Position numbers and translations under genes: made by a program | Notes under the pieces: model-generated | Told to the model about the DNA's origin: nothing | Database searches by the model: none | What the model saw: only the letters and a program-made list of their open reading frames with translations | Part shown: piece after piece, positions 304 to 51,595 of the stretch | How positions within the stretch are numbered: the first letter of the stretch is position 1 | Layout: every line of letters begins with the position of its first letter | DNA from: a virus | Lineage: Duplodnaviria; Caudoviricetes | IMG/VR virus record: IMGVR_UViG_3300035208_002115 | Direction: 5' to 3' (one strand) | DNA length: 64,000 nt

Positions 304-705
304 ATGAAATATATTAAAAGGTTCGATGAGCAACATGTTTTATCAGTTAAAAATCCTTGGGCATTTCTTATAGTATCGGGATTAAAAGATGTAGAAAATA
401 GAAGTTGGAAAACTAATTACCGAGGAAAATTATTAATACATTCCACACAAACACCTATTAAATTCAATAATTATAATGAATTATTTACGCCAGACCAAAT
501 AAAAGAATTACAGGATAATAATACAAATTTTAATAATTTATCAAATTCGGCTATTATAGGTGAAGTAGACCTTATAAATTGTATTCAAAATAGTGATTCC
601 ATATGGGCTGAATATGGTCAATGGCACTGGATAATATCTAATCCAAATATTTATATCAACCCCGTTTTAAATGTAAAAGGTTCTCTTTCAATCTGGAAAT
701 ATTAA
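304..705 (+). CDS. ASCH domain protein with N-terminal capsid-targeting-like leader
   Basis: LSVKNPWAFLIVSGLKDVENRSWKTNYRGKLLIH is the canonical ASCH motif; leader MKYIKRFDE. Confidence 0.9.
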   Translation: MKYIKRFDEQHVLSVKNPWAFLIVSGLKDVENRSWKTNYRGKLLIHSTQTPIKFNNYNELFTPDQIKELQDNNTNFNNLSNSAIIGEVDLINCIQNSDSIWAEYGQWHWIISNPNIYINPVLNVKGSLSIWKY

Positions 706-898
706 TATATAAAAAAACTTATTGCAATGAATAAAGGAATAAAAAAGAAGTATAAAGGCTGAATTCTATAACAAAACGGGTTAAAATAGCTAATAAATTA
801 ATTGATAAGTTAGATGAAAATGGTGAACCATTTTTTGATAAACAGTGGGTATTAAATAATATAATTCGCACATAAAAATATAAAATATATAATATATA

Positions 899-1432
899 AT
901 GAAAAAATTCACTGAAATAATAAACGAACAATTAACATACGATTATGGGTGTGTTATGATTAATTTCGATATTCCAAATTGGAATGACATAATAAAAGAG
1001 ATTGAAAAAGATGATATTTATGATGAAGATGGGTTTGGTCTCGAAAAAGAATCACATATAACACTACTTTTTGGTTACCCTAAAGAAATAGCTGTAAAAG
1101 ATATAAAAAATATCATCGGTAATTTGGATAGTTTTTATATTGAAATGCAAGAAACGTCATTATTCCAAAATGATAATTATGATGTTCTCAAATTTGATGT
1201 GAATCATGACACACTACATGCATTAAATGACTCATTAAAACAATTACCCAACACTTCCACCTTCCCAGATTATCATCCGCATATGACTATCTCATACATC
1301 AAAAAAGGTAGGGGAATTAAATATATAAAAAAATATGATAATTTGATAGTAGCAAAACCGTTAGAAATTGTGTATAGTTTACCTACTGGAACAAAGGAGA
1401 AAAAACAAGTCACCCTTCTTAAATTTAAATAA
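899..1432 (+). CDS. 2H phosphoesterase, Acb1/T4 gp57B-like
   Basis: Two HxT motifs (SHITLLFG, YHPHMTISY); TFPDYHPHMTISY resembles T4 57B DFDDYTPHITLSY; leader MKKFTEIINE. Confidence 0.75.
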   Translation: MKKFTEIINEQLTYDYGCVMINFDIPNWNDIIKEIEKDDIYDEDGFGLEKESHITLLFGYPKEIAVKDIKNIIGNLDSFYIEMQETSLFQNDNYDVLKFDVNHDTLHALNDSLKQLPNTSTFPDYHPHMTISYIKKGRGIKYIKKYDNLIVAKPLEIVYSLPTGTKEKKQVTLLKFK

Positions 1433-1437
1433 AAATA

Positions 1438-1824
1438 ATGTCTTATAAAATAAAAACATATAATCGATATGTAAATGAAGATAATTACATATATCACGGA
1501 ACTGGTAAAGGTCAGGCTTTAAATATTCAACGAGACGGTTTTATGAAACCAAATAATACTGGTGAAGAATTACCATCAATATCATTTACTAATGATTTAG
1601 ATTATGCTAAATATTACGCCAAATCAAAAGGAGGAATAGATAAAATGATAATTTTAAGAACAAAATTAAATAATGATTTTAAACTTTCTCCGAGAATAAG
1701 AAAAAATAAAGGAGATGAATATATTACATTTAATGAAATTCCATCATCTAAATTAGAAATATTGACGGGTTCTGAATGGTGTCTTTTAAATAAATGGAAT
1801 GTGATATTTGATGAACCTTTGTAA
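1438..1824 (+). CDS. ADP-ribosyltransferase-fold protein
   Basis: YIYHGT...SISFT..LDYAKYYA...DEYI pattern; leader MSYKIKTYNRYVNE. Confidence 0.6.
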   Translation: MSYKIKTYNRYVNEDNYIYHGTGKGQALNIQRDGFMKPNNTGEELPSISFTNDLDYAKYYAKSKGGIDKMIILRTKLNNDFKLSPRIRKNKGDEYITFNEIPSSKLEILTGSEWCLLNKWNVIFDEPL

Positions 1825-2198: not shown

Positions 2199-2363
2199 AT
2201 GCCAGCATTAATAAGACTTTCAGATTTACAATCTGTCCAACCATTATCAAAACCGAGTGGACATTTACATTATATAGATTTTTTTTATGAAACTATATCA
2301 GAAAAAAGGAAGAAGAAATTAAACGAAATATTTCCAGAATTTAAAAATGAAAACAAAAAGTAA
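2199..2363 (+). CDS. 54-aa protein: major-capsid-like fragment plus RxxKL tag (not in ORF track)
   Basis: MPALIRLSDLQSVQPLSKPSGHLHYIDFFYETISEKRKKKLNEIFPEFKNENKK*; SVQPLSKPSG resembles gp23 VQPMxxPTG. Confidence 0.65.
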   Translation: MPALIRLSDLQSVQPLSKPSGHLHYIDFFYETISEKRKKKLNEIFPEFKNENKK

Positions 2364-2556
2364 ATCTAAATTACAACAAATAAATAATTCAATTAATACA
2401 ACAGTGTCAATACCAACTGAACATTTTAATGTTACAGTTAGAGCAATTTATCCTTATGATTATCCAGATTTTAATTATTTTAAAAGAAAAGAAAAACGTG
2501 AACAACGATTAAAAAAATTAAGTGGATTATTCCCAGATTTTAAAGAAAATGTTTAG
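2347..2556 (+). CDS. Small protein with RxxKL tag
   Basis: Ends REQRLKKLSGLFPDFKENV. Confidence 0.7.
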   Translation: MKTKSKSKLQQINNSINTTVSIPTEHFNVTVRAIYPYDYPDFNYFKRKEKREQRLKKLSGLFPDFKENV

Positions 2557-2836
2557 TCACGAATTATATAATTCAGTTATATCACAGATTGGGGACACTC
2601 CGATTGACGGAGGTGTATATTTACCACTTGATACTTTTTCAGATGTTGATTTTAATAGTATAATTTTTCCAGTGGCGATGAAAATTGCTGCTCAAACAAT
2701 AGGTCTGAATTTAATATCAGTTCAGCCTATGGAACATGGGGTTGATTATGAAAAAATAAAACGAGAAAGAGTACGTGAACAACGAAAGAAAAAAATAGAA
2801 GAAATATTTCCTGAAATGAAAAAACATGAAAAGTAA
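2522..2836 (+). CDS. Major-capsid-like fragment plus RxxKI tag
   Basis: IFPVAMKIAAQTIGLNLISVQPM resembles the gp23 segment preceding VQPM; ends RKKKIEEIFPEMKK; start may be the Met at 2549. Confidence 0.65.
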   Translation: MDYSQILKKMFSHELYNSVISQIGDTPIDGGVYLPLDTFSDVDFNSIIFPVAMKIAAQTIGLNLISVQPMEHGVDYEKIKRERVREQRKKKIEEIFPEMKKHEK

Positions 2837-3014
2837 TTTCACTCTTAATATAATACAAAAAGCTATCCGAGATGGATTTACAACTTTAACAATTGATTGT
2901 GAATTAAATTATGACCAACTATGGTTAAAAGTAAAACGGGAAATTATTCAGGAACATAGAAAACAAAAAATAGAAGAACTATTTCCAGATATAAAAAATA
3001 ATAATAAACTATGA
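2826..3014 (+). CDS. Small protein with RxxKI tag
   Basis: Ends HRKQKIEELFPDIK. Confidence 0.7.
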   Translation: MKSNFTLNIIQKAIRDGFTTLTIDCELNYDQLWLKVKREIIQEHRKQKIEELFPDIKNNNKL

Positions 3015-3877: not shown

Positions 3878-4156
3878 ATGAAAAAATTTATCGATTTTAC
3901 AGTAAATTTAGAAGACAAAAGCAAAGACCAAGGACGATTTTTCTGGAAGAAAAGGTGGATTTCGTTTTGCAGTAGACATAAGAAGTATCAAAGATATTGT
4001 GATATTTGTAATTCTGGTAGATGGGAAAATGTGTGGGTTATGTGGTTTAGTGGAAAAGTTTATGATTACTTTCCTAAATTCTGGATATGGTGGGTTAATT
4101 TTCCAAAATATATAATAAATTTCAAAAAAATAAAAGATTTACATGAGAATTTTTAA
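3878..4156 (+). CDS. Trp-rich hypothetical protein with C/H metal-binding motif
   Basis: CSRH...CDIC. Confidence 0.65.
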   Translation: MKKFIDFTVNLEDKSKDQGRFFWKKRWISFCSRHKKYQRYCDICNSGRWENVWVMWFSGKVYDYFPKFWIWWVNFPKYIINFKKIKDLHENF

Positions 4157-6226: not shown

Positions 6227-7027
6227 TTAAAAAGAATCTTCTAAACTCATTATAAGTTTCTGCATATTAGCTCTGTAAAACCCAGCACAATTTATACATC
6301 CACATTCAACTATTTTATATTCACCGTTCACCAGACACAAATCCATAACAAAAGCATCATTTAATTGGAAAATATTCACCATTTTCTTACAGAAATCATA
6401 AGCTGGTTGGTCAATATTTTCATTTAAACAATATCTTCCACCTAATCTATATTGACTGGCTGTAACGACTTCACCTTTCACAATCCAGAACCGTATTTCT
6501 TGCTGTATGTTTTTAATAGAAGAAATTTGTATTTCAGTATCAACATTTAATAAATTTGATATTTGAATAGTAGTACCATCGTCAAAAGTGACAGTTGAAT
6601 TATCATTATTCAAAACACTTTCTTTAAAGTTTCTCCACTGTTCCATATCAAAGATTTTACCCGTAAACACTTTAGTATCCTTGGTTGGCCTTGCAAAAAA
6701 TATTTCTTTACTGAAAAACTCATCACCAAACCGATATACTTTAGAATCCCAGTTTAATAGCTTTTCTCTATAATATTCACGGTATACTAAATAATCATGA
6801 TTGTCGTTCATCTGCGACCCAGGTCTCCATCCGAGACCCTTTGATACCCTCGCCAGTTTCATAGAGCCAAACGGAAATATATCTTTTCTTTTAGTTTTAA
6901 TCTTTATATCATCAATAAATGGTAAAACTTTAACAACTTCATAGGGTAATTTCAACCTGTCTAAAGCTATTATTAAATTATTATAATTTTCTTCTTTAAA
7001 CGTATTCTCTTGAACAATATAATACAT
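6227..7027 (-). CDS. ATP-grasp domain protein (DUF4343/R2K-like)
   Basis: FFARPTKDTKVFTG, EIRFWIVKGEVVTASQY, FVMDL...KIVECGCINCAGFY. Confidence 0.8.
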   Translation of the reverse strand: MYYIVQENTFKEENYNNLIIALDRLKLPYEVVKVLPFIDDIKIKTKRKDIFPFGSMKLARVSKGLGWRPGSQMNDNHDYLVYREYYREKLLNWDSKVYRFGDEFFSKEIFFARPTKDTKVFTGKIFDMEQWRNFKESVLNNDNSTVTFDDGTTIQISNLLNVDTEIQISSIKNIQQEIRFWIVKGEVVTASQYRLGGRYCLNENIDQPAYDFCKKMVNIFQLNDAFVMDLCLVNGEYKIVECGCINCAGFYRANMQKLIMSLEDSF

Positions 7028-7032
7028 AATAT

Positions 7033-8370
7033 TTATTTTATACCTGTTGAACCAAATCCACTTTCACCACGTTCTGTTTCATTAACATCAAAACTATCAA
7101 CTTCGTCCCATTCAAAATGGACAATATGTTTCGGTATTATTTGAACTAATTTCATCGGTAAAACTAAGTCTGGTGCAGATTCATCAATTTTAATCAATGC
7201 TACCATGATATTACCTAAATATGTTCTATCTATAATACCAATTGAATTTGCCAGCATATAACCTGTTTTACTTATTGAACTTCTTGGTACTAATTCAAAA
7301 TAATATCCAAATTTAGGTTTAACTTTTATACCAGTATCATAAAATTCTACCTTACCAACTGTTTTTATTTTTTCTAATAAAACTAAATCATACCCAGAAT
7401 CAGATGCCCGTACTTTTGATGGCGGTATTGCATCTTTTCTTGTTTTAGACCATTGACAATGTTCATTTTTATAGTATTTACTGTATGATACAGATGGTAT
7501 CCAAGTTGATATATCTAAATAAATTTCATATTTTCTAATTAATCTATATTTAGATTGACTGCTATATAATTTATTTAAAAAATCAAGAGCATTATTACCA
7601 TACCAACTTAAATCTATACCGTTTTCAGAACAGGGAATTTTACAGAAATCAATTATAGCTTTTCGCATTTCAATCGAACTGGATGTAATTTTACATTCTG
7701 GGTTACAATGTTCATCATCGATGTTATGAATTGAACCATCACCATCAAATAAACCTCTTAAAAAAACCCACTTTAATTCATCATTTTCTAAATCAGGAAA
7801 GCATACAACATGTGACTTTTTTTCTGGTTTAATATTTAAAAGTTTACATACATCATTTGAAATTGTTTTTGAATTAATTGAAAATGAAACCAAATCTTCC
7901 TTTGGATTACTTATTGGTAGTTCACAACAAATAATATCTCTTAATATTTCCAGACATTTCACATCTTTTTTATGGATAGCTATTGTTATAGTACTTGGTG
8001 TAATTGAACCATCACTTGCAATCCAACCTAACAAATAAGCTTTTTCTTCATTATTGACTTCTTTAAAAAAATTATCATCTAAATTATATTTAGAATTCGG
8101 ATTATTTCTTCCCATATACATTTTTTCTTTTATTTTATTTGAACAAATTTTTGAACATGTAATACCATATTCATTTTTAATTCTTTTTAATCTTTTAGGT
8201 TTAACATGAAAATCTTTTCCACATACATAGCATTTTGCATTATTTTCAGCCGATTTATATTTTCCTAAACATTCTTTTGAACAAGTTTTATATCTTTTTA
8301 CTCTACTAAGAAAAATAAACTCTTTTTTTCCACAAACTTCACATTGAACTTCTATTTTCATATATACCAT
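7033..8370 (-). CDS. dut: Fusion of Zn-finger repeats, LAGLIDADG homing endonuclease and dUTPase
   Basis: CEVC..CSKEC and CYVC..CSKIC; YLLGWIASDGSI and FLRGLFDGDGSI; C-terminal dUTPase motifs SGYDL, PRSS, GIIDRTYLG, QII, RGESGFGSTG. Confidence 0.9.
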   Translation of the reverse strand: MVYMKIEVQCEVCGKKEFIFLSRVKRYKTCSKECLGKYKSAENNAKCYVCGKDFHVKPKRLKRIKNEYGITCSKICSNKIKEKMYMGRNNPNSKYNLDDNFFKEVNNEEKAYLLGWIASDGSITPSTITIAIHKKDVKCLEILRDIICCELPISNPKEDLVSFSINSKTISNDVCKLLNIKPEKKSHVVCFPDLENDELKWVFLRGLFDGDGSIHNIDDEHCNPECKITSSSIEMRKAIIDFCKIPCSENGIDLSWYGNNALDFLNKLYSSQSKYRLIRKYEIYLDISTWIPSVSYSKYYKNEHCQWSKTRKDAIPPSKVRASDSGYDLVLLEKIKTVGKVEFYDTGIKVKPKFGYYFELVPRSSISKTGYMLANSIGIIDRTYLGNIMVALIKIDESAPDLVLPMKLVQIIPKHIVHFEWDEVDSFDVNETERGESGFGSTGIK

Positions 8371-8409: not shown

Positions 8410-8724
8410 TTATTTTAGAATATCTTCTATCTTTGCTTTTCTTGTTGCATTTTTATCCAAAATAAAACGTTCGGCTATGAAAATTTTATCTGGGAATTCT
8501 TTTAAACTTATGATTTGAGGTGTATCAAGATGTTTATTATTGGATAATATTCTTATTTCAAATGCTTTTAATATTTCATCATCACAAGAACAATCTCGTA
8601 ATACTGTATAATTATCACACCATGACAAACACTTATAATCATCATATATTACATAGAAACGATTTTCAGCATAACCAGCCATAGTAGAAAATGTTATTAT
8701 ATCACCAACTTTAAATTCTTGCAT
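8410..8724 (-). CDS. SH3/KOW-like small protein with RxxKI tag
   Basis: FKVGDII...AERFIL...RKAKIEDILK. Confidence 0.7.
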   Translation of the reverse strand: MQEFKVGDIITFSTMAGYAENRFYVIYDDYKCLSWCDNYTVLRDCSCDDEILKAFEIRILSNNKHLDTPQIISLKEFPDKIFIAERFILDKNATRKAKIEDILK

Positions 8725-9038
8725 TATAATATATCTAAACTATTAATTTTTTTCTTTCTTGTTTCAGTCACATTTAATACAAATCTATCAGCTTTGAATA
8801 TATGTTTTGTAAAGAATGCGTTAATATCTACAACAAGTAATTCTTCTAAAGTGATAATTTCAAAAATAGCTACATCATGTATTTGTTTATGAATTGACAA
8901 TACTGTATAATTTTCACCCAAGGTTAATAAAACATAATTATCAGGTATTGGAATTTTATATTGATGTGTTACAGGATTATAAAAACCATGTTCTTCAGCA
9001 CAATCTATACATGTTACAACATCACCAATCTGAAACAT
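8724..9038 (-). CDS. SH3/KOW-like small protein with RxxKI tag
   Basis: Likely start MFQIGDVVTCID (9038); ADRFVL..RKKKINSLDIL. Confidence 0.7.
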   Translation of the reverse strand: MFQIGDVVTCIDCAEEHGFYNPVTHQYKIPIPDNYVLLTLGENYTVLSIHKQIHDVAIFEIITLEELLVVDINAFFTKHIFKADRFVLNVTETRKKKINSLDIL

Positions 9039-9042
9039 AAAA

Positions 9043-9219
9043 TTAAATTTTAATAACAAGCCAACCAATCACATACTCAGTGATAATTTCACCATCATCA
9101 GTTCGCCAGTCATGTCCATCAAATACTGCAATAACATATCCCAGATAGCAATAATCGGGACACTGAACAATACACGGGTCAGTCACGGGTTTTTTCGGAT
9201 TTAATAATTTAAATTTCAT
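9043..9219 (-). CDS. 58-aa hypothetical protein (not in ORF track)
   Basis: Manual translation MKFKLLNPKKPVTDPC...VIGWLVIKI*; fills the gap. Confidence 0.55.
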   Translation of the reverse strand: MKFKLLNPKKPVTDPCIVQCPDYCYLGYVIAVFDGHDWRTDDGEIITEYVIGWLVIKI

Positions 9220-9223
9220 AATT

Positions 9224-9445
9224 TTAATGCTTTATAATTTCATTTGCGTAAAATTCACAAACATATCTTTGATATTTTGGACGAACATAAATATAAAAAC
9301 CGTCAATACTAATTATTCTTCCGAGTATTGGACTTGGATTATTTTTTAAATCGAATGGAATATTTCCTATAATTTCTATTATATCACCAACTCTAAATCG
9401 AGGTCGGTATGGAATTATATTGACTAAATAAGAATCAATCTCCAT
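9224..9445 (-). CDS. SH3/KOW-like small protein
   Basis: FRVGDIIEI...GRIISIDG. Confidence 0.65.
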   Translation of the reverse strand: MEIDSYLVNIIPYRPRFRVGDIIEIIGNIPFDLKNNPSPILGRIISIDGFYIYVRPKYQRYVCEFYANEIIKH

Positions 9446-9653
9446 ACAAAATTTCTTTTATTTTAAGCATTCTCTGATGTTGTAATTGTAATTTTTTAGA
9501 ATTGTTAATCAAAAAGTCTGTTTCTTTTTTCATTATATCATATAAACAATAATGACAGACGTATTCTCCACGTCTTTTGACTAAATTATATTCTGTCCCA
9601 CAATTACAGCAAGTTTTCATATCATCGTTCTGTTTTACTCCCACATCTTTCAC
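9435..9653 (-). CDS. Zinc-finger protein with RxxKI tag
   Basis: CCNC...CHYC; RMLKIKEILYGD. Confidence 0.7.
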   Translation of the reverse strand: MKDVGVKQNDDMKTCCNCGTEYNLVKRRGEYVCHYCLYDIMKKETDFLINNSKKLQLQHQRMLKIKEILYGD

Positions 9654-9763
9654 AAAAATTTATTTCAATTAAATCACCTTCCCACGTTTCTTCCAAACCC
9701 CATTCATCATCATATTCGTGATATCCTAACCAAGATAATATATTACCTATTTTTCTTTTCATA

Positions 9764-9988
9764 TTATTGATAAGTTACAGAAACATACTTTACTGATTGT
9801 CCTTTATAATCGAATTCCCAGCGATTAATTACATATTCATGTTCGGCCTTAGATTTACCATAATACATCTCATATTTCTGTTCCCAGAAACCGTCTGGTT
9901 TTTGAAACCAAAATTTAACCTCATATGATTCTGAGTAGAGAACATGTTCGTTCTTCTTTATCTCATCGTATTTAAGTATTTTTCCCAT
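9764..9988 (-). CDS. Small protein with capsid-targeting-like leader
   Basis: MGKILKYDEIKKNE; AATATATA upstream. Confidence 0.65.
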   Translation of the reverse strand: MGKILKYDEIKKNEHVLYSESYEVKFWFQKPDGFWEQKYEMYYGKSKAEHEYVINRWEFDYKGQSVKYVSVTYQ

Positions 9989-10018
9989 AGACTTGTGTTT
10001 ATATCAAAGGAATATATA

Positions 10019-10261
10019 TTATTCCAAAATACCAAGACTCTTTATCTTTTTTTTCCTAAGATTTGGTATAAGTTGTTTATGACAATCTGGACAAAAAACA
10101 CCTGATTCTATTTCAACATATTGCATGAGTTCAAAATGATTTAGTGGTGTGTCACAGTATTTACATCTCCAATTTCTATCCAATGACGATAATGTCATAT
10201 TCTTACCGTAATCTGGTAATTCATTAACTCGCCAACTATGGTCACCAAGTCTACTCATCAA
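10019..10261 (-). CDS. Zinc-ribbon protein with RxxKI tag
   Basis: CKYC...CPDC; RKKKIKSLGILE. Confidence 0.7.
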   Translation of the reverse strand: MMSRLGDHSWRVNELPDYGKNMTLSSLDRNWRCKYCDTPLNHFELMQYVEIESGVFCPDCHKQLIPNLRKKKIKSLGILE

Positions 10262-10466
10262 AAAGTTCTTTAAGTTTTAAATATCTTTCGTGTAATTTTG
10301 TGAGTGTTGCACTAAAAATTGTCCAACCATTATTATAATAAATAAACATGGTTTGTGTATGCAATTCATAATACACATCATATTCTTGTGGAAAATCTGG
10401 TTTATGATGATGCCATTTAAAGCCACCATTATCAAGAAGTGAATCAATATGATTTTTATTACCCAT
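10251..10466 (-). CDS. Small protein with RxxKL tag
   Basis: ERYLKLKELFDE. Confidence 0.7.
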   Translation of the reverse strand: MGNKNHIDSLLDNGGFKWHHHKPDFPQEYDVYYELHTQTMFIYYNNGWTIFSATLTKLHERYLKLKELFDE

Positions 10467-10752
10467 TAAATCCAGTTATCCTTGTGTATTTCTGTTGATA
10501 CCTGATAGAAATTGCCTTATATTTTATGTAGTCCGTACCACTCTCATATTCCCAATAAGCACCACCAGCATTTTTTATTTTACCAATACAAGCTTCGTAG
10601 ATTAAATGATAGCTGGTGTTAACAATCTGTTCAGCTTCAATTATAGTGTTAAACCTTATAGACTTGTCCTTAAAATGTGCTATTACAGGCACATTATATT
10701 TTCGCTGTTTTTTAACTGCGACAGTTTTTGAATTAATAACTTTACTTTTCAT
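10459..10752 (-). CDS. NUMOD1-like DNA-binding protein
   Basis: RFNTIIEAE...IYEACIGKIKNAGGAYWEY. Confidence 0.65.
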   Translation of the reverse strand: MKSKVINSKTVAVKKQRKYNVPVIAHFKDKSIRFNTIIEAEQIVNTSYHLIYEACIGKIKNAGGAYWEYESGTDYIKYKAISIRYQQKYTRITGFNG

Positions 10753-10775
10753 ATAATATTCATTTACTCTATATA

Positions 10776-11042
10776 TTACAAATCATCAAAAATGTTTAAT
10801 AATTTTTGTTTGCGAAATTTGACTAATGAAATAAAATGTTTTTTACTATGAAAATTACTGGTTTCTTCTAACATAACTATATTTTCTAACGCATTATATG
10901 TTACATCGGGATTATCTTCTTCACTAAAATCAACTCTAATTGTGTATATTTCATGTAATTTAATATATTTATTAGGTTTATCTTTGTCCCGTTCTTCTTC
11001 TTCTTTTATACAAACTACTTTATCACCAACTTTATATTTCAT
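10776..11042 (-). CDS. SH3/KOW-like paralog with RxxKL tag
   Basis: YKVGDKVVCI...KHFISL..FRKQKLLNIFDDL. Confidence 0.75.
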   Translation of the reverse strand: MKYKVGDKVVCIKEEEERDKDKPNKYIKLHEIYTIRVDFSEEDNPDVTYNALENIVMLEETSNFHSKKHFISLVKFRKQKLLNIFDDL

Positions 11043-11269
11043 TTTAGAATTTCATTTATTTTCAATTTCCTAAATTCTTCCATAGTAATAAATCGTTCTT
11101 TAGAACAAATATCATTTACACCATGAAGAAACAATCCAGTAATCTCAATATCACGAAAATTAAACAATATATTTGTATCTACTGTGTAAATTTTATACAA
11201 TTCCAACGACATTTCACCATAAAATTTTGGTTCAATACAAACTATTTTATCCCCCTCATTAAAAATCAT
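11039..11269 (-). CDS. SH3/KOW-like paralog with RxxKI tag
   Basis: FNEGDKIVCI...ERFITMEEFRKLKINEILK. Confidence 0.75.
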   Translation of the reverse strand: MIFNEGDKIVCIEPKFYGEMSLELYKIYTVDTNILFNFRDIEITGLFLHGVNDICSKERFITMEEFRKLKINEILK

Positions 11270-11534
11270 TTAATATATTCTTTATTTTCTGCATTCTGAA
11301 TTCATTAATTGAAATAAAATGTTCTTTACACCATAAACTACTTTGATATCTTATCGAATTATTATGTGTATATTTCGCTTTTATGGTTAAACATCCAGCT
11401 ATAACACCTTCAACTATATAAATCTTATTTAATTCCAATTCTATTTCTGGTATAGAATCAGATAATTTACAAGCATCAACAGAAACTACTTTATCACCTT
11501 TTTTAAAAATCATATAAACAATCTTTTCCACCAA
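11259..11534 (-). CDS. SH3/KOW-like paralog with RxxKI tag
   Basis: FKKGDKVVSV...EHFISINEFRMQKIKNILNDF; start probably 11513. Confidence 0.75.
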   Translation of the reverse strand: MVEKIVYMIFKKGDKVVSVDACKLSDSIPEIELELNKIYIVEGVIAGCLTIKAKYTHNNSIRYQSSLWCKEHFISINEFRMQKIKNILNDF

Positions 11535-34278: not shown

Positions 34279-34812
34279 TTACGCAGCAGGGGTTGTTTCT
34301 TCAGCAGGTTTTTCTTCCTCTGCTGGCGGTGTTTCTTCTGCTGGAGCTTCTTCGGCTGTTGGTTCTTCTGCAAATTCAGATGATGCAGTTTCTTCACTCG
34401 TAGCTGGTTCAGCTTTAAATTTTCCTATTTCATCAATATTTGTAATCTTATCAACTATAAAATCTTCTGTTATGTCAGTTATTGGAACTTCTTCTTCATA
34501 ATTTTCTATAAGATTATTATCGGCATCATATTTTTTTAGAGTTAATACCAATTTTGTAAGTTTATCATCTTGAAACATTCCTTGGTCGATAAAGAAAATA
34601 AGTTGAAACCTATTATCATCATCTTCGAAATCTACAATTATATCTCTTGATGTTCCCTGAGATAAATTGGATTCTTCAATTTCTAATAGATTAGTGTTTT
34701 GTGATAATGAACCTTCCGAAAACCAACTTCTAAGATTTATCAATAAATCATCAAAATATCTTCTTATTATATTGTTACGTGATTGTGCAAAATCTTCAAA
34801 AAGTTTAATCAT
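34279..34812 (-). CDS. Acidic putative internal/head protein with A/E/P/T-rich tail
   Basis: Leader MIKLFEDF; tail AEEPTAEEAPAEETPPAEEE; AATATATA at 34834-34841. Confidence 0.7.
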   Translation of the reverse strand: MIKLFEDFAQSRNNIIRRYFDDLLINLRSWFSEGSLSQNTNLLEIEESNLSQGTSRDIIVDFEDDDNRFQLIFFIDQGMFQDDKLTKLVLTLKKYDADNNLIENYEEEVPITDITEDFIVDKITNIDEIGKFKAEPATSEETASSEFAEEPTAEEAPAEETPPAEEEKPAEETTPAA

Positions 34813-34863
34813 AGAATGTTTTTAGTTTTAATCTATATATTAAATACTGTTTTTAATTTTTAA

Positions 34864-35871: not shown

Positions 35872-35877
35872 AAAAAA

Positions 35878-36894: not shown

Positions 36895-37026
36895 ATTTTA
36901 ATTATTAAAATTTTATTGATATACATCTATATATTCAACAAGTTTGGTTCAATAGTTAAAATGTAATAAATTTTATAAAAAATAGTTTCAATTATTTTAT
37001 ATATATGTAAAAAGAATATTAAAAAT

Positions 37027-37821
37027 ATGTCTATTATAAGCTTTTCAGAATTCAACCTTAATGAAGGTCTTACCAAAATAAAAGTTGGTGACACAATTGT
37101 GGTAACTAAAGATGATACATCGGATGAACCAAAACGTACATTAAAAGTTGGTTCTGAATATGTTGTTAAAGCACTTGATTATTTAAGTGGGTGGTTAAGA
37201 CTTGAAGGTGAAAAATATCTTCACAATCCAGACAATTTCAAAAAAGTTAAATCAGAAAAAAAAGTGAATGAAGATTCATCAACAACAGGAACTGTTGGTT
37301 CTGGAACAGCCGTTGGTGGTGGTGCAACTGGGTCATTTACATCTGCTGCTGGTGTATCAGTAAGTGGTGGTGATTCTGGTACTGCATATGCAACTAATTC
37401 TATGAAAGGTATGGGTGCTATAAAAAGCGCACAACCATCCAAAACACCGGGCGATGTTGCTGGTTCAACCGAAGGTAGTGGTGATATTGGTTCTGTTTTA
37501 GGAACATTCACCAAACAACCTGCTGGTGGTGGATATAAAAAAAGAAAGAAAAAAGGAGAAAAAGTGGAAAATCAAATAAAAAATATGTATGTCGTTAAAT
37601 TCAGTGAATTTGATGGTGTTAAAAACATAAAAGAAAATGCTTATATTCCACCTAAAAAAGTGAAATGTCAAGAATGTGGTGAAGAAGTAGAAGATGATTT
37701 TGTTACTATGTTGGGTCATGTACAGAATAAACATTGGGCGCAACCTAATGCAAGATTCGTTGATGCTGAACCAAGAGAAATGGTGAAACAATTTTTTCAT
37801 GAAATACCCGAAAAAAAATAG
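37027..37821 (+). CDS. Multi-segment putative internal virion protein (SH3-like + G/S/T-rich + Zn finger)
   Basis: Leader MSIISFSEFNLNE; internal KKVNED and VVKFSEF..IKEN; CQEC..H....H. Confidence 0.7.
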   Translation: MSIISFSEFNLNEGLTKIKVGDTIVVTKDDTSDEPKRTLKVGSEYVVKALDYLSGWLRLEGEKYLHNPDNFKKVKSEKKVNEDSSTTGTVGSGTAVGGGATGSFTSAAGVSVSGGDSGTAYATNSMKGMGAIKSAQPSKTPGDVAGSTEGSGDIGSVLGTFTKQPAGGGYKKRKKKGEKVENQIKNMYVVKFSEFDGVKNIKENAYIPPKKVKCQECGEEVEDDFVTMLGHVQNKHWAQPNARFVDAEPREMVKQFFHEIPEKK

Positions 37822-37826
37822 ATTCT

Positions 37827-38177
37827 ATGAAATATTTAATTCTATTTAATGAATCTAACGGTATTACTCAGACAAATACTACCTCATATACAGCAAGTAA
37901 GCTTATTGACAAACTAAAACGTCTTAATTATATTAATGGTAGTTTGACCCCAGAACATGGCGATAAAGGTGGATTATATACAGGGATTAAAACAGGGTAC
38001 AATATAAGAATAATATTATCTGGTGATAAAAGTGCATTGGACAGGACATTTGATATTAATGTTTCAAATAAAGATGCTTTATCAACCAAAGGGTTTAATT
38101 CTTTCGATGAAGATAGTGATGCAGTTGATATATCTTTTAAGGATATTGGGGTGATAATTAAAGATTTAAACAAATAA
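37827..38177 (+). CDS. Putative internal virion protein
   Basis: Leader MKYLILFNES. Confidence 0.7.
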   Translation: MKYLILFNESNGITQTNTTSYTASKLIDKLKRLNYINGSLTPEHGDKGGLYTGIKTGYNIRIILSGDKSALDRTFDINVSNKDALSTKGFNSFDEDSDAVDISFKDIGVIIKDLNK

Positions 38178-38347
38178 TGAAAAATATGAAAAACTGGCAA
38201 ACCTTTATTAAAGAATTTGTAAATTATAATGAAAGAGAAACTGATTTAAGTTGGATTATAGAAATATTACCCAATTTAAAAGAAGAACAAATTTATAAAA
38301 TTCGAGAATTTATGATGAACGACCTAAATTTAGAAGGAGAAGAATAA
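38177..38347 (+). CDS. 56-aa putative internal virion protein (not in ORF track)
   Basis: MKNMKNWQTFIKEFVNYNE...LEGEE*. Confidence 0.6.
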   Translation: MKNMKNWQTFIKEFVNYNERETDLSWIIEILPNLKEEQIYKIREFMMNDLNLEGEE

Positions 38348-38363
38348 AAATAAAAATATAAAA

Positions 38364-39038
38364 ATGATAACAACTTTTAATACCTATACAAACGAGAATA
38401 AGTCGTTCTCTGATTATCCATATCAAATGTTTTATTCAAAAGATAATATAGCTTCAGCTAAAGGTGCAAAATCTGAAAGAGAATTAATTAGTATGGCTAA
38501 GAATTTAAATTTAAAAGAATTTGCTATTTATAAAACATATGCTAATGGTAGAACTTTTTATTCAACTGCTGATGAAAATTTCTTAGTATCTTGGTATGAC
38601 AAGGGTGGTCGTGATTATTGGTCAAATAGGTCTAAAAAAGAACCAGAATTATTAAAGAAGAAAATTGAAAAACTTGATGAAGGTTTAATGGATGATTTAA
38701 TAGCTGATAGTGATGCTGGTGTTAAACAGACCAATGAATACAGTGATAAACCAATTTTTGTTTTATGGGCTGAAAAAGCAACAAAAGATTTTCCCAGTAT
38801 AATTAAAAAAGCTATGTATAAAGGAAAAAGCAATAAATTGTGGAACAGAGAATATATTACAAATGCACATAATGGATATGGTACGGTTTTCTTTATTGAT
38901 GCTAACAACGTACCAGAGGCTAAATCCGAATTAATAAAAGCATTACGACACGGCTCTGCTGATAATATTTATTATTTTGGTGTAAATTCTAAAGCCATGT
39001 TAGATGGGATAGATTGGAACTATATTATAAATAAATAA
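38364..39038 (+). CDS. Putative internal virion protein
   Basis: Leader MITTFNTYTNEN; internal KLDEG and QTNEY. Confidence 0.7.
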   Translation: MITTFNTYTNENKSFSDYPYQMFYSKDNIASAKGAKSERELISMAKNLNLKEFAIYKTYANGRTFYSTADENFLVSWYDKGGRDYWSNRSKKEPELLKKKIEKLDEGLMDDLIADSDAGVKQTNEYSDKPIFVLWAEKATKDFPSIIKKAMYKGKSNKLWNREYITNAHNGYGTVFFIDANNVPEAKSELIKALRHGSADNIYYFGVNSKAMLDGIDWNYIINK

Positions 39039-39434: not shown

Positions 39435-40478
39435 ATGGATTATAATAAAAACTACTATACGATTTTAGGTCTCACCAAGGATGCTGATAAGGATTTGATT
39501 AAGAAAACCTATAAAAAACTGGCCTTAAAATATCATCCTGATAAAAACAATCAAGATAAAAAATCAGAAGAAAAATTCAAAGAAATAAATGAAGCGTATC
39601 AAATCATTGGTGATGATGTTAAAAGAAATGATTATGATGTAAGAAGTCCACATGGTAAGAGTTATAATCCGAATCCATTTGGTAGTGGATTTAATCCATT
39701 TACTGGTAGAGGGGGTGGTGGTGGAGATTTTAATGATATTTTTGAAGTATTTAAAAATTTCGGACACACACAAGGTTTTAATTTTAATTATAAAGAACAA
39801 TTTCATGAAAATTTAGATATTAGTGTTTCAGTAAATGTCTCAATAGAAGATATTTATAACAATAATCCAATAAAGGTTGTATATGATAGAAATATACATT
39901 GTAGTGAATGTAATGGAACAGGTTTCAACCCACACAGCGAATCATTTGTTTGTGAAGTATGTGGCGGTTCAGGTCATGGTATGTATGGTAATAAATGTGA
40001 GAGTTGCCAAGGTTCTGGTAGAATATATTCAGCTACTTGTCCGAAATGTAAAGGGGAAAAACTTCAAAATAAAAAAGAAGAATTTAATTTCTTAAATTCT
40101 TATCAGGTTCGCAACTCTTTTAAAACCAGAAAAGGTAGATATGGACATCAATCGAAATATTATCGTGGTACAAGTGGGGATTTAATAGTAACACTTATTT
40201 TCATTAATAATACAAATTTTGTTATTCGCCCAGATAATAATTTAGATTATAAATTGAATATCCATTATGAAGATGCCATCAACGGTTTAGATTATCAAAT
40301 AAAGACCCCAGATAAAAAATCGTATAATGTTAAAATACCAGCTAATACAAAAGATGGTGATGTGTTAAAATTAAATGGAATAGGAATGTTAAATTTAGAT
40401 GGGAAGACACGTTCGGGGATATATATAGTTATAAATATTATTATAGATTATGAAAGACTTGGAAAAAATAGCATTTAA
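39435..40478 (+). CDS. dnaJ: DnaJ/Hsp40 co-chaperone (class A)
   Basis: J domain with HPD, G/F-rich linker, four CxxCxGxG-type repeats, C-terminal domain. Confidence 0.92.
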   Translation: MDYNKNYYTILGLTKDADKDLIKKTYKKLALKYHPDKNNQDKKSEEKFKEINEAYQIIGDDVKRNDYDVRSPHGKSYNPNPFGSGFNPFTGRGGGGGDFNDIFEVFKNFGHTQGFNFNYKEQFHENLDISVSVNVSIEDIYNNNPIKVVYDRNIHCSECNGTGFNPHSESFVCEVCGGSGHGMYGNKCESCQGSGRIYSATCPKCKGEKLQNKKEEFNFLNSYQVRNSFKTRKGRYGHQSKYYRGTSGDLIVTLIFINNTNFVIRPDNNLDYKLNIHYEDAINGLDYQIKTPDKKSYNVKIPANTKDGDVLKLNGIGMLNLDGKTRSGIYIVINIIIDYERLGKNSI

Positions 40479-41870: not shown

Positions 41871-41922
41871 AATGTTTTTTTATATATACATTTATTAAAT
41901 ATCTAAAAAATAATTTATATAA

Positions 41923-42279
41923 ATGAAAAACATTTTTAATTTTAAAAAATTCATTTCTAATAAGTTAAATGAATATAAGAATGCAAGTAAAGTTGAAGTT
42001 TTACCCCTGAAAAGTGTAATAGACCAGTTTAAATCACTTGAAAAAGGTATAAATTCGCTTGGTTATAAAGTCGAATTCTCAGAAAAGGATATTAACCGAG
42101 TAGCTGAAAATCATTCAACTTGTAAATTTATTATTGATGGTAAACAAAAGACTTTTTTAATATTCAAAAATGGAACAGTTTATCTTTCTAAAGAAAATGA
42201 AGATGGATATATTGGAATTTTGATATACTACGATGAATTCTTAAAAGGTCTTAAAAAAATACTTAAAGAAGCGTTATAA
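41923..42279 (+). CDS. Putative internal virion protein
   Basis: Leader MKNIFNFKKFISNKLNE. Confidence 0.65.
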   Translation: MKNIFNFKKFISNKLNEYKNASKVEVLPLKSVIDQFKSLEKGINSLGYKVEFSEKDINRVAENHSTCKFIIDGKQKTFLIFKNGTVYLSKENEDGYIGILIYYDEFLKGLKKILKEAL

Positions 42280-48014: not shown

Positions 48015-48046
48015 AAAAAACCCAGCTAAATGCTGGGTCTTTTTTT
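48015..48046. terminator. Bidirectional intrinsic terminator
   Basis: aaaaaa cccagc taaat gctggg tcttttttt between convergent genes. Confidence 0.8.
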
Positions 48047-48524
48047 ATCTCATTCTTATCTTTTTTAAATCGGTTTCGTCTTTTATCACATAACAATTTA
48101 TGGTTTTAATACCTAATTTTTTAGCTTTGTATATTCTTTTCCATCCGTCAATTAACATATGAAAATCACCATCCATTACAAAAATAACAGGGTCTTTTAA
48201 TTCTTCTTCAGTTATATTATTTGCTATTTTTCTATCAACGGATATCCCGATTTTTGTTTTATAGCTTTTACCATCTTCTCTTTCATCATTCTGAACTTGA
48301 ACACCATTTTCATCAAATGTTCTTGATACTAATTCATAAAAATCATCCACAGGTAGTTCATAATATGAACCATCTTCCTGAAGATATTTCTCAGGATTAT
48401 TTCTAATTAAATCCCAAGCCATTTCAACATCATATCCTTTTGTTAAAAAATGAAAATATTCACCTTTTGTTGTTTCTGCTGGTTTATATCTTTCAAAAAT
48501 TTCATATTTTTTTAAATATATCAT
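48045..48524 (-). CDS. ParB/Srx-like domain protein with capsid-targeting-like leader
   Basis: DPVIFV...MLIDGWKRIYKAKKLGIKTINCYV; leader MIYLKKYEIFE. Confidence 0.7.
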   Translation of the reverse strand: MIYLKKYEIFERYKPAETTKGEYFHFLTKGYDVEMAWDLIRNNPEKYLQEDGSYYELPVDDFYELVSRTFDENGVQVQNDEREDGKSYKTKIGISVDRKIANNITEEELKDPVIFVMDGDFHMLIDGWKRIYKAKKLGIKTINCYVIKDETDLKKIRMR

Positions 48525-48540: not shown

Positions 48541-48560
48541 TTTTTAATATATATTAAAAA
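48541..48560. promoter_or_regulatory. Perfect 20-bp palindrome carrying back-to-back AATATATA motifs
   Basis: tttttaatatatattaaaaa between divergent genes 48524(-) and 48574(+). Confidence 0.55.
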
Positions 48561-48573: not shown

Positions 48574-50841
48574 ATGCCCAACCTCAATGCCGAAATTTTA
48601 TTGAAAGCTGTTGAATTTTCACCTGCAAGTATAATTATTACAGATAAAGAAGGCTTGGTAGAATTTGTGAATAATAAATTTACAGAAGTTTCAGGATATT
48701 CAAGAAAGGAAGTTTTAGGAAAAAATCCAAACATATTAAAATCTGGTGTTCAATCTGATGATTTCTATAAAGAATTATGGGAAACCATATCCAGTGGAAA
48801 AGAGTGGAGAGGTGAGTTTCACAATAAAAGAAAAAATGGTACTCTTTATTGGGAGTCTGCTTCTATATCATCATTTAAAGATGACGAGGGTAACATATTA
48901 AAATACGTAGCTGTTAAAGAAGATATAACCAATAAAAAAGAGCTTGAAAAAGTGTTGAAGATGAAAGAATTTTCAATAGAAAACACTAAAGAGGGTATGA
49001 TGTGGTTGGATTTAAAGGGTGAAGTTACTTATTGTAATAAATCTTACCATGAGATGTTAGGTTATGATGAGAATGAAATAAATAAAAAATTAGATTGGTA
49101 TGACTTAGTACCAAAAGAATATAAAAGTTTGTGGAAAGAATATTTTAATATTTTAAAAAAGAAAAAAAATATTACACTGGAACATTTTCATCTCACTAAA
49201 AATAGTGAAACATTTCCAATGGAAGCTTCTTTGAATTATTTCAAAATTGATGATGAAGAATATATTTTTATTTTTACACGAGATACAACCATTCGTAGAG
49301 AAATGGAAAATATAATAAAAATGAGTGAAGATAAATTCACTAAAATATTTATGTTCATACCTGATTCAGTTCTGGTAACCGACTTAGAAACATCAGAATA
49401 TTTAGAGGTTAATATAGCATTTGAAAAATCATCTGGTTGGAATAGGTCTGAATGTATCGGTAAAACCATATACGAATTAAATATATGGAAGTATCCAGAA
49501 AAAAGGGTGGAAATGATAGAATTATTAAAACAAAATGATGGTGAATATTATAATTATGAAGTGGAATTCATATTAAAGAATGGGGAAGAAAGAACTGGTT
49601 TAATGGCTGGAAAAATTATAAATTACGATGGAAAAAATAGGTTATTAACTATAATACGAGACATATCAGAAAGAAAATTATATGAACTGGAGTTAGAAAA
49701 AGCTAAAGAAAAAGCCGAAAAATCTGATAGATTAAAATCATCTTTTTTGGCTAACTTATCACATGAAATACGAACACCTATGAATGCCATCATTGGGTTT
49801 TCCGATTTATTAAAAGATAATAATCTTCCTTTGAATGAAAAAACGGAATATGTTAAAATAATAAATGAAAGTGGAGATGAATTATTAAAATTAATTGATG
49901 ATATAATTGATATAGCCAGAATAGAATCAGGTGAATTAAATATAGAAGAAATGAAATATCATGTTGAAAATATCATGATGGATTTATATAATACTTATAA
50001 AAATAAAATTAAATTTTATAATAAGAATTTAAATCTTGTTTGTGAATCGTGTCCATCATCACACATGACATTGGCTTATATTGACCCATACCGTGTTAAA
50101 CAAGTTCTTTCAAATCTTCTAAGTAATGCTATTAAGTTCACTGAAGACGGTATTGTTGAATTTGGTTTTGTAATTAAAAATAATTTTATTGAATTTTTTG
50201 TTAAAGATTCTGGTATTGGTATCCATGAAAAATATAAGAATTTAATATTTGAAAGATTTCGTCAGATAGATGAAAGTAAGACAAGAAAATATGGTGGTAC
50301 TGGACTTGGTTTAAATATTTGTTTAAATCTTGTTAAAATGATGGGTGGTGATATATGGTTAGAATCTAAACCAAAAGAAGGTAGTATATTTTATTTTAAT
50401 GTACCATATAAACCAGCCATTGAATATAAAAATATGGTAACTTCTACATTTAACAAAGATAATTATGATTGGACTGGTAAAAAAATATTAATTGCAGAAG
50501 ATATTCCTACAAATTTTGAGTATCTAAATGAAGTTCTTAAATGTACTGGGTGTGAAATAATTCATGCTGAGAACGGTAAATTAGCTATTGAATATTATAC
50601 CAAATATAAACCAGATATAGTGTTAATGGATATACAAATGCACATTATGAATGGTATTGAAGCTAAAGAAAAAATAAGATTGTTATATCCCGATTCTATT
50701 ATTATAGCTCAGACTGCATATGCAATGAAAAATGATAAAAAAGATTGTTTAAATATGGGGTTTAATGATTATATATCTAAACCGATTAATAAAGTAGAAC
50801 TGTTTAATATAATTAATAAGCATCTGAAAATTAATATATAA
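48574..50841 (+). CDS. Hybrid sensor histidine kinase (3 PAS + HisKA + HATPase + REC)
   Basis: Three PAS/PAC repeats; H-box FLANLSHEIRTPMN; N-box NLLSNAIKFT; G1 DSGIGI; G2 GTGLGL; receiver AED, LMDIQM, KP. Confidence 0.95.
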   Translation: MPNLNAEILLKAVEFSPASIIITDKEGLVEFVNNKFTEVSGYSRKEVLGKNPNILKSGVQSDDFYKELWETISSGKEWRGEFHNKRKNGTLYWESASISSFKDDEGNILKYVAVKEDITNKKELEKVLKMKEFSIENTKEGMMWLDLKGEVTYCNKSYHEMLGYDENEINKKLDWYDLVPKEYKSLWKEYFNILKKKKNITLEHFHLTKNSETFPMEASLNYFKIDDEEYIFIFTRDTTIRREMENIIKMSEDKFTKIFMFIPDSVLVTDLETSEYLEVNIAFEKSSGWNRSECIGKTIYELNIWKYPEKRVEMIELLKQNDGEYYNYEVEFILKNGEERTGLMAGKIINYDGKNRLLTIIRDISERKLYELELEKAKEKAEKSDRLKSSFLANLSHEIRTPMNAIIGFSDLLKDNNLPLNEKTEYVKIINESGDELLKLIDDIIDIARIESGELNIEEMKYHVENIMMDLYNTYKNKIKFYNKNLNLVCESCPSSHMTLAYIDPYRVKQVLSNLLSNAIKFTEDGIVEFGFVIKNNFIEFFVKDSGIGIHEKYKNLIFERFRQIDESKTRKYGGTGLGLNICLNLVKMMGGDIWLESKPKEGSIFYFNVPYKPAIEYKNMVTSTFNKDNYDWTGKKILIAEDIPTNFEYLNEVLKCTGCEIIHAENGKLAIEYYTKYKPDIVLMDIQMHIMNGIEAKEKIRLLYPDSIIIAQTAYAMKNDKKDCLNMGFNDYISKPINKVELFNIINKHLKINI

Positions 50842-50847
50842 ATTATT

Positions 50848-51183
50848 ATGAATTTTATGTATTTTGATAAATATCAAATGGTCTTAGAAAATGCAGATTG
50901 GAGTCTGACGTTTAATGTTGCAGATATATGGCATAAATATTCATCTGGAAACCTTTCATTAACAGACTTTTGTAAATTATACAGGGATTATATTTTAAAG
51001 AAAAAAAATGAGATAGTTAAGCTGTATGGTAATGATGCATGGGTTAAATTGGATGGTGTTATACAAAAATTAGGTAGTGTCACTGATGAAAAAGAATCAC
51101 ATAATATTTTTGATTCTATATATGATTGGGCTGATGCACATGAAGTTTTAATACAGACAAATACAGAACAAGAAGAATTTTAA
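50848..51183 (+). CDS. Putative internal virion protein
   Basis: Leader MNFMYFDKYQMVLEN; AATATATA at 50833-50840. Confidence 0.65.
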   Translation: MNFMYFDKYQMVLENADWSLTFNVADIWHKYSSGNLSLTDFCKLYRDYILKKKNEIVKLYGNDAWVKLDGVIQKLGSVTDEKESHNIFDSIYDWADAHEVLIQTNTEQEEF

Positions 51184-51199
51184 AAATAAAAATATAAAA

Positions 51200-51595
51200 A
51201 TGAGACATATACAAGATTTCAGAACATTCGAAGATAATAATCATAGTGATTACATAGAACAGGAAATAGTTTTAATCCGCTTTGAAGTAACTGAAGATAA
51301 CCCTATTATAACACCCGTTAAAATAATAAAAAAGTATTCTAATAATGCATATCTTGTTTCTCATAATATTGAAGATAGTAATATAAGAAATTTCCCAGAC
51401 CTTAAAATAAAAGGTAGTGATATAATTTCACCTTATCAACAGATGGATTCACCTATGGATAGTACTTGGGTTACAACAAATCCGAGAATTAATCCAAATG
51501 TTTCAGGTCAAATTGCAGGTGGAAATGGTGCGCCAGTTTCGGATATTACTTTACCACCAGCTAATCAACGTCCATCAAACGATATTTCTATTTAA
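51200..51595 (+). CDS. Putative internal virion protein
   Basis: Leader MRHIQDFRTFED. Confidence 0.65.
   Translation: MRHIQDFRTFEDNNHSDYIEQEIVLIRFEVTEDNPIITPVKIIKKYSNNAYLVSHNIEDSNIRNFPDLKIKGSDIISPYQQMDSPMDSTWVTTNPRINPNVSGQIAGGNGAPVSDITLPPANQRPSNDISI

Follow-up and report, generated by a model that had tools for sequence, protein, structure and literature searches.

Why should so many small and mutually unrelated proteins of one phage begin with nearly the same short peptide? The question is raised by a 64,000-nucleotide stretch of DNA (here called the window), which corresponds to bases 221370-285369 of the 675,678-bp IMG/VR virus record IMGVR_UViG_3300035208_002115 (Duplodnaviria; Caudoviricetes). 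An earlier reading of the window, made without database searches (the sequence-only reading), had listed 23 N-termini resembling the leader by which phage T4 packages its internal proteins into the head, and had proposed that these leaders bring a large payload of enzymes into the host cell together with the DNA. The record is 98% complete with 27.4% G+C, and represents a Mahaphage-like, Bacteroidota-type phage of 676 kb that is uncultivated and known here from its genes alone; its upstream regions are A-rich and without Shine-Dalgarno sequences, which is Bacteroidota-like. The best reading of the feature is a T4-type capsid-targeting system that has expanded hugely and includes a repeat scaffold. 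We consider it probable that the leader is a tag of the T4 capsid-targeting sequence (CTS) type, removable by a protease and joined to over 100 small proteins with no relation to one another.

A Short N-Terminal Leader Recurs throughout the Genome

All 23 listed N-termini could be located at the positions claimed for them. The leader was modeled in two ways. A position-specific scoring matrix (PSSM), iterated from strict matches, collected 77 open reading frames (ORFs) with a bimodal score, and 89 once internal Met starts were allowed, while a hidden Markov model (HMM) with indels, trained solely on this phage, was built on 103 N-termini for which the aromatic pair served as the anchor, with a support threshold of at least 8 bits. 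When the genome was scanned with this HMM, as the sequence-only reading had proposed, 134 of 1174 ORF starts (11.4%) reached the threshold, against ~6 expected; in the controls, it was reached by 30 of 5870 N-termini after shuffling and by 13/2643 internal Met positions. Seventeen of the 23 listed leaders were supported at this level, i.e., those of the genes at 1438, 22799, 23395, 23925, 24804, 25536, 26054, 27394, 27935, 31466, 34279, 37827, 38177, 38364, 41923, 48045, and 51200. Three more were borderline at 7.0-7.7 bits (304, 22146, and 37027), and the remaining three were left unsupported (899, 9764, and 50848).

The leader logo reads M-K-[YH]-[LI]-K-[TL]-[FY]-E-x-[FY], and two forms can be told apart, a long one (M-K-[YH]-[LI]-K-x-[FY]-x-x-[FY]-[ILV]-N-E) and a short one (M-x-K-x-[FY]-x-x-[FY]-[ILV]-x-E). 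The two aromatic positions were occupied by F/Y in 76/77 and 61/77 sequences, respectively, and the aromatic pair was spaced i, i+3 in 103/120 leaders. The first Glu after the second aromatic residue stood at +3 in 48/103 leaders, and I/L/V/M/F was found at P3 in 61/78.

Conservation of the leader lies at the amino-acid and not at the nucleotide level, since synonymous codons vary at the conserved residues (TTA/CTA/TTG/CTT for Leu, TTT/TTC for Phe, and several for Ile as well). Substitutions, too, are conservative at the protein level (F/Y, I/L/V). Both observations argue against the conserved start being a nucleic-acid feature, i.e., an AT-rich, initiation-friendly 5' region or a promoter-plus-leader shuffling cassette like the T4-type PeSL, as does the presence of the same peptide pattern inside the scaffold protein described below. 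Such an explanation would suit the fixed spacing of 20-23 nt between promoter box and ATG at many tagged genes, the recurrence of terminator hairpin, box, and leader as a unit in other phages, and the finding of tagged genes in arrays, but we regard it as very improbable. A cassette role could coexist with targeting.

The Leader Precedes Unrelated and Fast-Changing Payloads

When the residues after position 14 were compared among 89 leader proteins, they fell into 87 BLAST clusters at 1e-4. Judged by this comparison and by the codon variation described above, the leader is a portable peptide and neither a DNA signal nor a consequence of paralogy. The median tagged protein is 151 aa long, and none has more than one Pfam domain. 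The earlier reading had named ASCH, Acb1-like, ADP-ribosyltransferase (ART), ankyrin, and ParB-like payloads. Pfam bore out the ASCH, 2H/Acb1, ankyrin, and ART-PolyVal domains, the leader of the Acb1-like gene being doubtful, while no match to a ParB-like domain was found among the window's tagged proteins; the remaining payloads gave neither a Pfam nor a PHROG match, ten unannotated ones having been compared with PHROGs. The ASCH domain (PF04266) begins at residue 13 of the 304-705 product and the ART-PolyVal domain at residue 15 of the 25536-26045 product, in both cases right after the leader.

Homologues within 400 kb of LR756501, the nearest published relative, were found for 3/134 payloads, and the leader was present in all three of them; cargo turnover is therefore fast, while the tag is retained. 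Fast-changing payloads are likewise a property of the hypervariable internal-protein loci of T-even phages, in which a conserved CTS precedes variable proteins and which have been read as products of a host-defense arms race (Repoila et al. 1994, as cited in PMC9026906), although T-even phages have one or two such loci, compared with dozens of units over 676 kb here. The ART-PolyVal domain (25536-26045) and the idea of enzymes delivered with the DNA are shared with polyvalent proteins (Iyer et al. 2017, as cited in PMC7824862). Polyvalent proteins, however, are single giant multidomain polypeptides, whereas here each domain has one small tagged protein to itself; a giant-polypeptide system was rejected on the length and domain count of the tagged proteins.

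The payloads also bear on the possibility that the leader binds the core and is cut, but that most tagged proteins serve as core components during assembly, or are lost by expulsion or degradation when the head matures, and are not delivered effectors. This would agree with the resemblance of the leader to the scaffold's own repeat unit and with payloads that are acidic like scaffold proteins and unlike the basic internal proteins of T4. Conversely, effector-typical domains (ART-PolyVal, ankyrin, ASCH) occur among the payloads, unrelated proteins with fast turnover fit an arms race better than a structural role, and a foreign protein fused to the CTS in T4 remains in the head and gets delivered (PMC9026906). 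We hold this explanation to be unlikely and prefer that of a capsid-targeting tag on delivered cargo.

The Leader Resembles the T4 Capsid-Targeting Sequence

The T4 signal MKTYQEFIAE is documented, with residues 4 and 7 acting in targeting and residues 8 and 10 in processing (PMC9026906). Placed with an offset of three residues, the T4 CTS reached 11.7 bits on the megaphage PSSM. On the megaphage-trained HMM, the top four of 280 T4 ORFs were gp61.1 (15.3 bits), ipIII (11.2 bits), ipII (10.8 bits), and ipI (9.9 bits), in line with the earlier statement that T4 itself has only a few such proteins (three to four). The hypothetical protein gp61.1 (NC_000866 18966-19130, - strand), which starts MKTFKEFIKE and outscores ipI-III, may be an unrecognized CTS-bearing protein.

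In both phages, N-terminal leaders of 10-13 residues stand on unrelated proteins and hold an aromatic pair three apart, followed by I/L-x-E in T4 and in roughly half of the leaders here; the portal is of the gp20 type in each phage, the capsid protein of the gp23 type, and the protease of the gp21 fold. They differ in several respects. Thus, ~130 genes are tagged here vs. three to four in T4; the commonest form here (MKYLKTFE.F) has three extra N-terminal residues, with Asn and not Ala at P2; many copies here lack the canonical cut site; the payloads here are acidic; and the protease is fused to a scaffold of CTS-like repeats, whereas T4 gp22 is without such repeats.

This likeness has to be weighed against the possibility that the tag is a handling signal for late proteins unrelated to the capsid, such as a DnaJ/Hsp70-type chaperone site or an oligomerization or localization helix. 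The phage encodes a full DnaJ homologue (39435-40478) behind the same box as tagged genes, and the K-[YH]-L-K-x-F core of the leader, hydrophobic with basic flanks, is like generic Hsp70-binding peptides as they are commonly known. Such a signal would nevertheless leave unexplained the conserved [ILV]-x-E, the identity of the pattern with the T4 CTS, and the recovery of ipI-III, and likewise the repeat array of the protease-scaffold protein and its co-occurrence with tag expansion. We find it quite improbable, and the T4-type capsid-targeting tag remains the favored explanation.

The Head Genes Encode a gp21-like Protease Fused to a Repeat Scaffold

The portal, protease-scaffold, and capsid genes lie ~256 kb downstream of the window. 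The portal (genome 548039-549826) matches PF07230 at 7.5e-68, and the capsid protein belongs to the Gp23 family (PF07068, 3.5e-27); for the cleavage site of the latter, the N-terminal alignment to T4 gp23 is too rough, with SEYAE and MNE both candidates. An 801-aa protein (genome 545023-547428) has an N-terminal head maturation protease domain (phrog_207, 1e-26) that also matches PF20034 (Peptidase_S80) at 27.4 bits, above the 23.4 cut-off. A search of the genome with the T4 S77 family (PF03420) gave no match, but the control was likewise empty. The protease retains the NRN-R-Y, GE-HP, and SSR-G motifs, and in an alignment with T4 gp21 its His77 falls on the His of GELNHP and its Ser132/133 on the Ser-Ser of VSSRG. 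In an AlphaFold (AF2) model of the protease-scaffold protein built from 13 homologues (predicted local distance difference test 60-83 for the N-domain), the best three PDB matches of the protease were chains A-C of T4 gp21 (5JBL; E 2e-7 to 8e-7, TM 0.64-0.67), followed in rank by herpesvirus proteases. The gp21-like protease on which the sequence-only reading depended is supported by its PHROG and Pfam families, aligned catalytic residues, and predicted fold. Two further traits of these proteins were seen: the portal ends in a Gly/Ala-rich low-complexity tail with GGGAAQGGG-type repeats, and a ~150-residue, acidic, Gln-rich disordered linker (QAQTQVQD repeats) separates the helical repeats of the protease-scaffold protein from its C-terminal helical domain.

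An S80-type protease is shared with phiKZ and SPN3US. These phages and 201phi2-1 are likewise giants with many head-internal proteins, and their protease (gp175, gp245) cuts after Glu (PMC5694885). Their propeptides, however, are mostly long (20 to over 100 residues) with the motif S/A/G-x-E or A-x-E, and just 8 of ~50 head proteins are processed in SPN3US (PMC5694885). No short common leader occurs there, while here the leader is short (10-14 residues), shared, and marked by I/L at P3, and long protein-specific propeptides of that type were rejected as a description of the present system.

Downstream of its protease domain, the same protein contains a repeat array. The heptad expression [FYW]xx[FYW][ILVMF]xE had 127 matches in the proteome of this phage, 14 of them in the protease-scaffold protein, where 13 keep an exact 14-residue period; of the others, ~44 start close to the N-terminus (positions 2-10), while the remainder are dispersed through the proteome at a density of 0.3 per 1000 residues. 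It also matches FGSFLTE, residues 59-65 of T4 gp23, which we take to be the known maturation site at Glu65. The scaffold repeat has the core Y-x-x-Y-[LI]-A-E in 13 copies, with the consensus N-I-x-Y-S-E-Y-[LI]-A-E-N-[LV]-D, and this core has the heptad pattern of the leader and of the T4 signal. In the AF2 model, the repeats form a single long helix. The homologue in LR756501 has 14 repeat copies, and no such array was found in PTm1, PAU, pT24, MA9V-1, or T4 gp22.

Tagged Genes Share a Promoter Box with Head and Tail Genes

A T-rich-[AT]ATATATA box (TAATATATA) lies 20-23 nt before the ATG of ~190 genes. The earlier observation that many tagged genes or their operon heads follow AATATATA held: [AT][AT]ATATATA was present 17-34 nt upstream of 12/23 listed genes, with a genome-wide peak at 20-23 nt, and 21/23 stand in box-headed units. 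Promoter classes were assigned with distance-constrained boxes and simple transcription units, replacing a first, unconstrained version that was too loose. At the transcription-unit level, tagged genes were divided 97:10 between the late box and a host-type TAnnTTTG box, in contrast to 308:380 for other genes (odds ratio 12, p 8.5e-21). The same box is found at the portal operon and at the protease-scaffold, capsid, sheath-like, and window tail-fiber genes. The last of these (52788-54638, - strand; phrog_5668, 6e-29), with its TAATATATA box at 54660-54668, 21 nt upstream, serves as a marker of the box as a driver of virion genes. From the box common to tagged and head/tail genes, we infer that the tagged genes are expressed late.

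Taken together, the unrelated payloads, the conservation at the amino-acid level, the head genes, the recovery of ipI-III, and the common box support the central proposal of the sequence-only reading, namely, a portable T4-type leader acting with a gp21-like protease.

In other tag-bearing phages (IMG/VR loci L030, L035, L051, L054, L067, and L079), TTTAATATATA comes after a G+C-rich hairpin with a T-run and stands only 4-5 nt from the ATG of the tagged gene. This arrangement would suit a terminator-promoter-leader cassette and suggests that late mRNAs are leaderless or nearly so.

Leader Frequency Tracks the Scaffold Array across Phages

In its capsid protein, the phage shares 50-62% identity with LR756501-LR756504 and LR745206, uncultured phages of 634-735 kb; more distant capsid relatives are Tenacibaculum PTm1 and pT24, Chryseobacterium MA9V, Sphingomonas PAU, and the Lak phages. 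Using the same HMM threshold, we counted leaders per phage. Besides the present genome (134/1174), leaders were frequent in LR756501 (51/579, 8.8%, first 400 kb), in a complete 256-kb IMG/VR phage (27/363, 7.4%, with payloads all unrelated), and in the first 140 of 290 kb of another phage (G025; 8/131, 6.1%), all of which have the scaffold array. The counts were 3/331 in PTm1, 2/218 in PAU (160 kb), 5/260 in pT24 (200 kb), and 3/260 in MA9V-1 (200 kb), where the array is missing. Leader frequency thus tracks scaffold arrays, and the four cultured phages show background or few leaders. Among the IMG/VR matches listed, moreover, all 16 tag-bearing contigs with a Gp23 gene had 3-13 repeat copies at multiples of 7 in the neighboring protease-scaffold ORF.

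Searched as a DNA pattern, the long form was present in at least 120 stretches of IMG/VR. Most of the matches listed lie in fragments of phages sized ~250-800 kb by CheckV, and among them a Gp23 capsid gene was found in 22/48 larger contigs. In 596 Gb of cellular genomes there were just 105 matches, mostly single, and the motif is therefore not a host feature. LR756501, PTm1, pT24, MA9V-1, and PAU gave 0-1 matches to the long-form pattern, LR756501 using the short form. In the cultured jumbo phage MA9V-1 (OR050627, first 200 kb), ORFs start MKNFFSFINEA, MKTFTCFINEA, and MKTFFNFVNES, which are near-perfect T4-type leaders. The motif strings were not found in the open literature, and the tag goes unmentioned in the megaphage and jumbo-phage papers examined. 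In that literature, virion analysis of the cultured relative MA9V-1 is limited to sodium dodecyl sulfate-polyacrylamide gel electrophoresis, and the only cultivated megaphage is phage G, which is unrelated to the present one.

A Possible Route from Prohead to Host

For the tagged proteins, we infer docking, cleavage, packaging, and injection along the following lines. The TAATATATA-box promoters common to head and tail genes would transcribe the tagged genes, and the amphipathic leader would dock on the prohead core, its two aromatics corresponding to T4 CTS residues 4 and 7. It would probably dock there on the long helical scaffold portion of the 801-aa fusion, with its 13 Y-x-x-Y-[LI]-A-E repeats. 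The gp21-fold protease would then cut after Glu in scaffold repeats and leaders, freeing the cargo inside the head, and the cargo would reach the next host with the DNA, including an ADP-ribosyltransferase, an ankyrin protein, an ASCH protein, possibly a 2H phosphodiesterase, and many orphan proteins. Tentatively, and with some doubt, the model may be taken further: the tandem scaffold repeats would be a docking rail, each leader would mimic one repeat, enter the helical core, and come free through the cut that also releases the repeat, so that cargo capacity would scale with repeat number, and the virion cargo of a whole clade of uncultivated jumbo and mega phages would be readable from genomes.

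Several observations weigh against this account. In roughly half of the leaders the aromatic pair is not directly followed by [ILV]-x-E; Glu stands elsewhere in some of these, and 17/103 have none within 8 residues. The payloads are acidic (median isoelectric point 5.5 vs. 6.5), whereas the T4 internal proteins are basic, and more than 100 distinct cargo species would be without precedent. MKKFTEIINE of the gene at 899-1432 is loosely leader-like and falls outside the model (PSSM -6.8, HMM below 4). The promoter box also precedes non-virion genes, e.g., those for DnaJ and a histidine kinase, and a search of the genome with T4 gp55 found no late sigma factor. The scaffold array was absent from all cultured phages in the collection. 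Finally, P2 is Asn in the leaders and Ala in the scaffold repeats and in T4, and when N-termini were scanned with a PSSM of 14 columns, made from the scaffold repeats of 16 other phages, they were enriched just 2-5x (Mann-Whitney p 0.52). Because P2 differs and this enrichment is small, the likeness between leader and repeat concerns the heptad pattern only; the notion of the leader as a copy of the scaffold repeat was dropped after the PSSM result, and the shared pattern alone was retained.

Tagged Genes of the Window

The first tagged gene of the window (304-705, + strand) has MKYIKRFDEQ directly before its ASCH domain, with a PSSM score of 19.7, a borderline HMM score of 7.7, and a box at 278-286. 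It is followed by the 2H phosphoesterase/Acb1-like gene (899-1432, +; PF13563 at 32.2 bits, PF23474 at 29.3 bits), a doubtful member, and by a tagged gene (1438-1824, +) with Y-N-R-Y-V-N-E at residues 8-14, an HMM score of 18.7, and a strict regular-expression match, for whose payload Pfam and PHROG searches gave no match. A borderline candidate that the sequence-only reading had not listed begins MKKFIDFTVNLE (3878-4156, +; HMM 7.0). Two listed genes are unsupported as tagged, one starting MGKILKYDE (9764-9988, -; HMM 1.8, PSSM 4.0) and one starting MNFMYFDKY (50848-51183, +; PSSM -18.5, HMM below 4).

Seven consecutive tagged genes with mutually unrelated payloads occupy 22146-26458 (-), with boxes at 23905-23913 and 26486-26494. 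From low to high coordinates, they are 22146-22796 (HMM 7.6, borderline), 22799-23395 (13.0; an ankyrin payload by Pfam), 23395-23883 (21.6), 23925-24800 (9.5), 24804-25526 (15.7), 25536-26045 (15.1; the ART-PolyVal payload by Pfam), and 26054-26458 (14.0), all on the - strand. The unit that runs on into this array is headed by an untagged N-acetylmuramoyl-L-alanine amidase gene (26494-27294, -; PF01510, 1e-13), whose box lies 21 nt upstream at 27316-27324, and amidase and array together resemble the T4 gene order e-ipIII-ipII.

Further tagged genes are spread over the rest of the window. The one starting MKYVKTFETYNQE (27394-27930, +) reached 23.2 bits on the HMM, with a box at 27359-27367. 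Two are of the short type: MVKLYEEFNAD, of T4 length (27935-28318, -; HMM 10.7; box 28344-28352), has Asp at the expected Glu, and MIKLFEDFAQS (34279-34812, -; HMM 10.0; box 34834-34842) has no Glu at the cleavage position. The gene starting MKQIFKFHEFLYE (31466-31954, +; HMM 12.5, strict regular-expression match) has a box at 31435-31443, 22 nt upstream of 31466, which is the true start, an internal Met of the longer ORF 31412-31954. A four-gene tagged unit (37027-39038, +; box 36997-37005) comprises 37027-37821 (HMM 7.0, borderline), 37827-38177 (8.8), 38177-38347 (20.0; MKNWQTFIKE, with the start probably at 38186), and 38364-39038 (15.4). The last three are MKNIFNFKKFIS (41923-42279, +; HMM 13.5; box 41880-41888), MIYLKKYEIFE (48045-48524, -; HMM 15.2; box 48548-48556), and MRHIQDFRTFE (51200-51595, +; HMM 14.0, PSSM 22.2).

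Neighboring Genes

The DnaJ homologue (39435-40478, +) is full length, with J domain, Zn finger, and C-terminal domain, and lies behind a TAATATATA box. A hybrid histidine kinase with three PAS domains, HisKA, HATPase, and a receiver domain is encoded at 48574-50841 (+), divergent from the tagged gene 48045-48524, and the two have overlapping TAATATATA boxes on opposite strands (48545-48553/48548-48556). Beside another tagged gene, a box-headed unit contains two adjacent radical-SAM genes (34864-36894, -), one with a SPASM domain, which may form a peptide- or nucleotide-modifying pair.

A second, C-terminal tag was seen at 2199-3014 (+), where four small adjacent genes have the basic tail ...K-x-E-[IL]-F-P-[ED]-[FMI]-K in common. 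A narrow regular expression for it found eight ORFs genome-wide, of which seven have that tail, one of these seven lying beside the capsid gene, and the N-terminal leader is absent from all ORFs with the tail. The row of small genes at 8410-11534 (-), whose N-termini repeat (K/E)-x-G-D-x-[IV]-x-C/S (e.g., KVGDKVVC, NEGDKIVC, and QIGDVVTC), looks like an array of small paralogues. At 6227-8370 (-), an R2K-clade ATP-grasp protein adjoins a fusion of endonuclease (HNH-like) and dUTPase domains.

Implications

To our knowledge, it has never been established where the CTS binds within the T4 core, and the repeat scaffold is a concrete candidate partner for this capsid-targeting signal. Metagenomes could also be searched with the tag for packaged anti-defense proteins, and engineered capsids could be loaded by means of it. 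Were the docking-rail model true, the 7-11% of all genes that bear the leader would make up a larger arsenal of delivered proteins than is known from any other phage. If the tag has the function that it has in T4, roughly one gene in nine of this 676-kb phage would encode a head-carried protein, which would explain in part the large size of such genomes and would name candidate first-strike proteins of phages that have not been grown.

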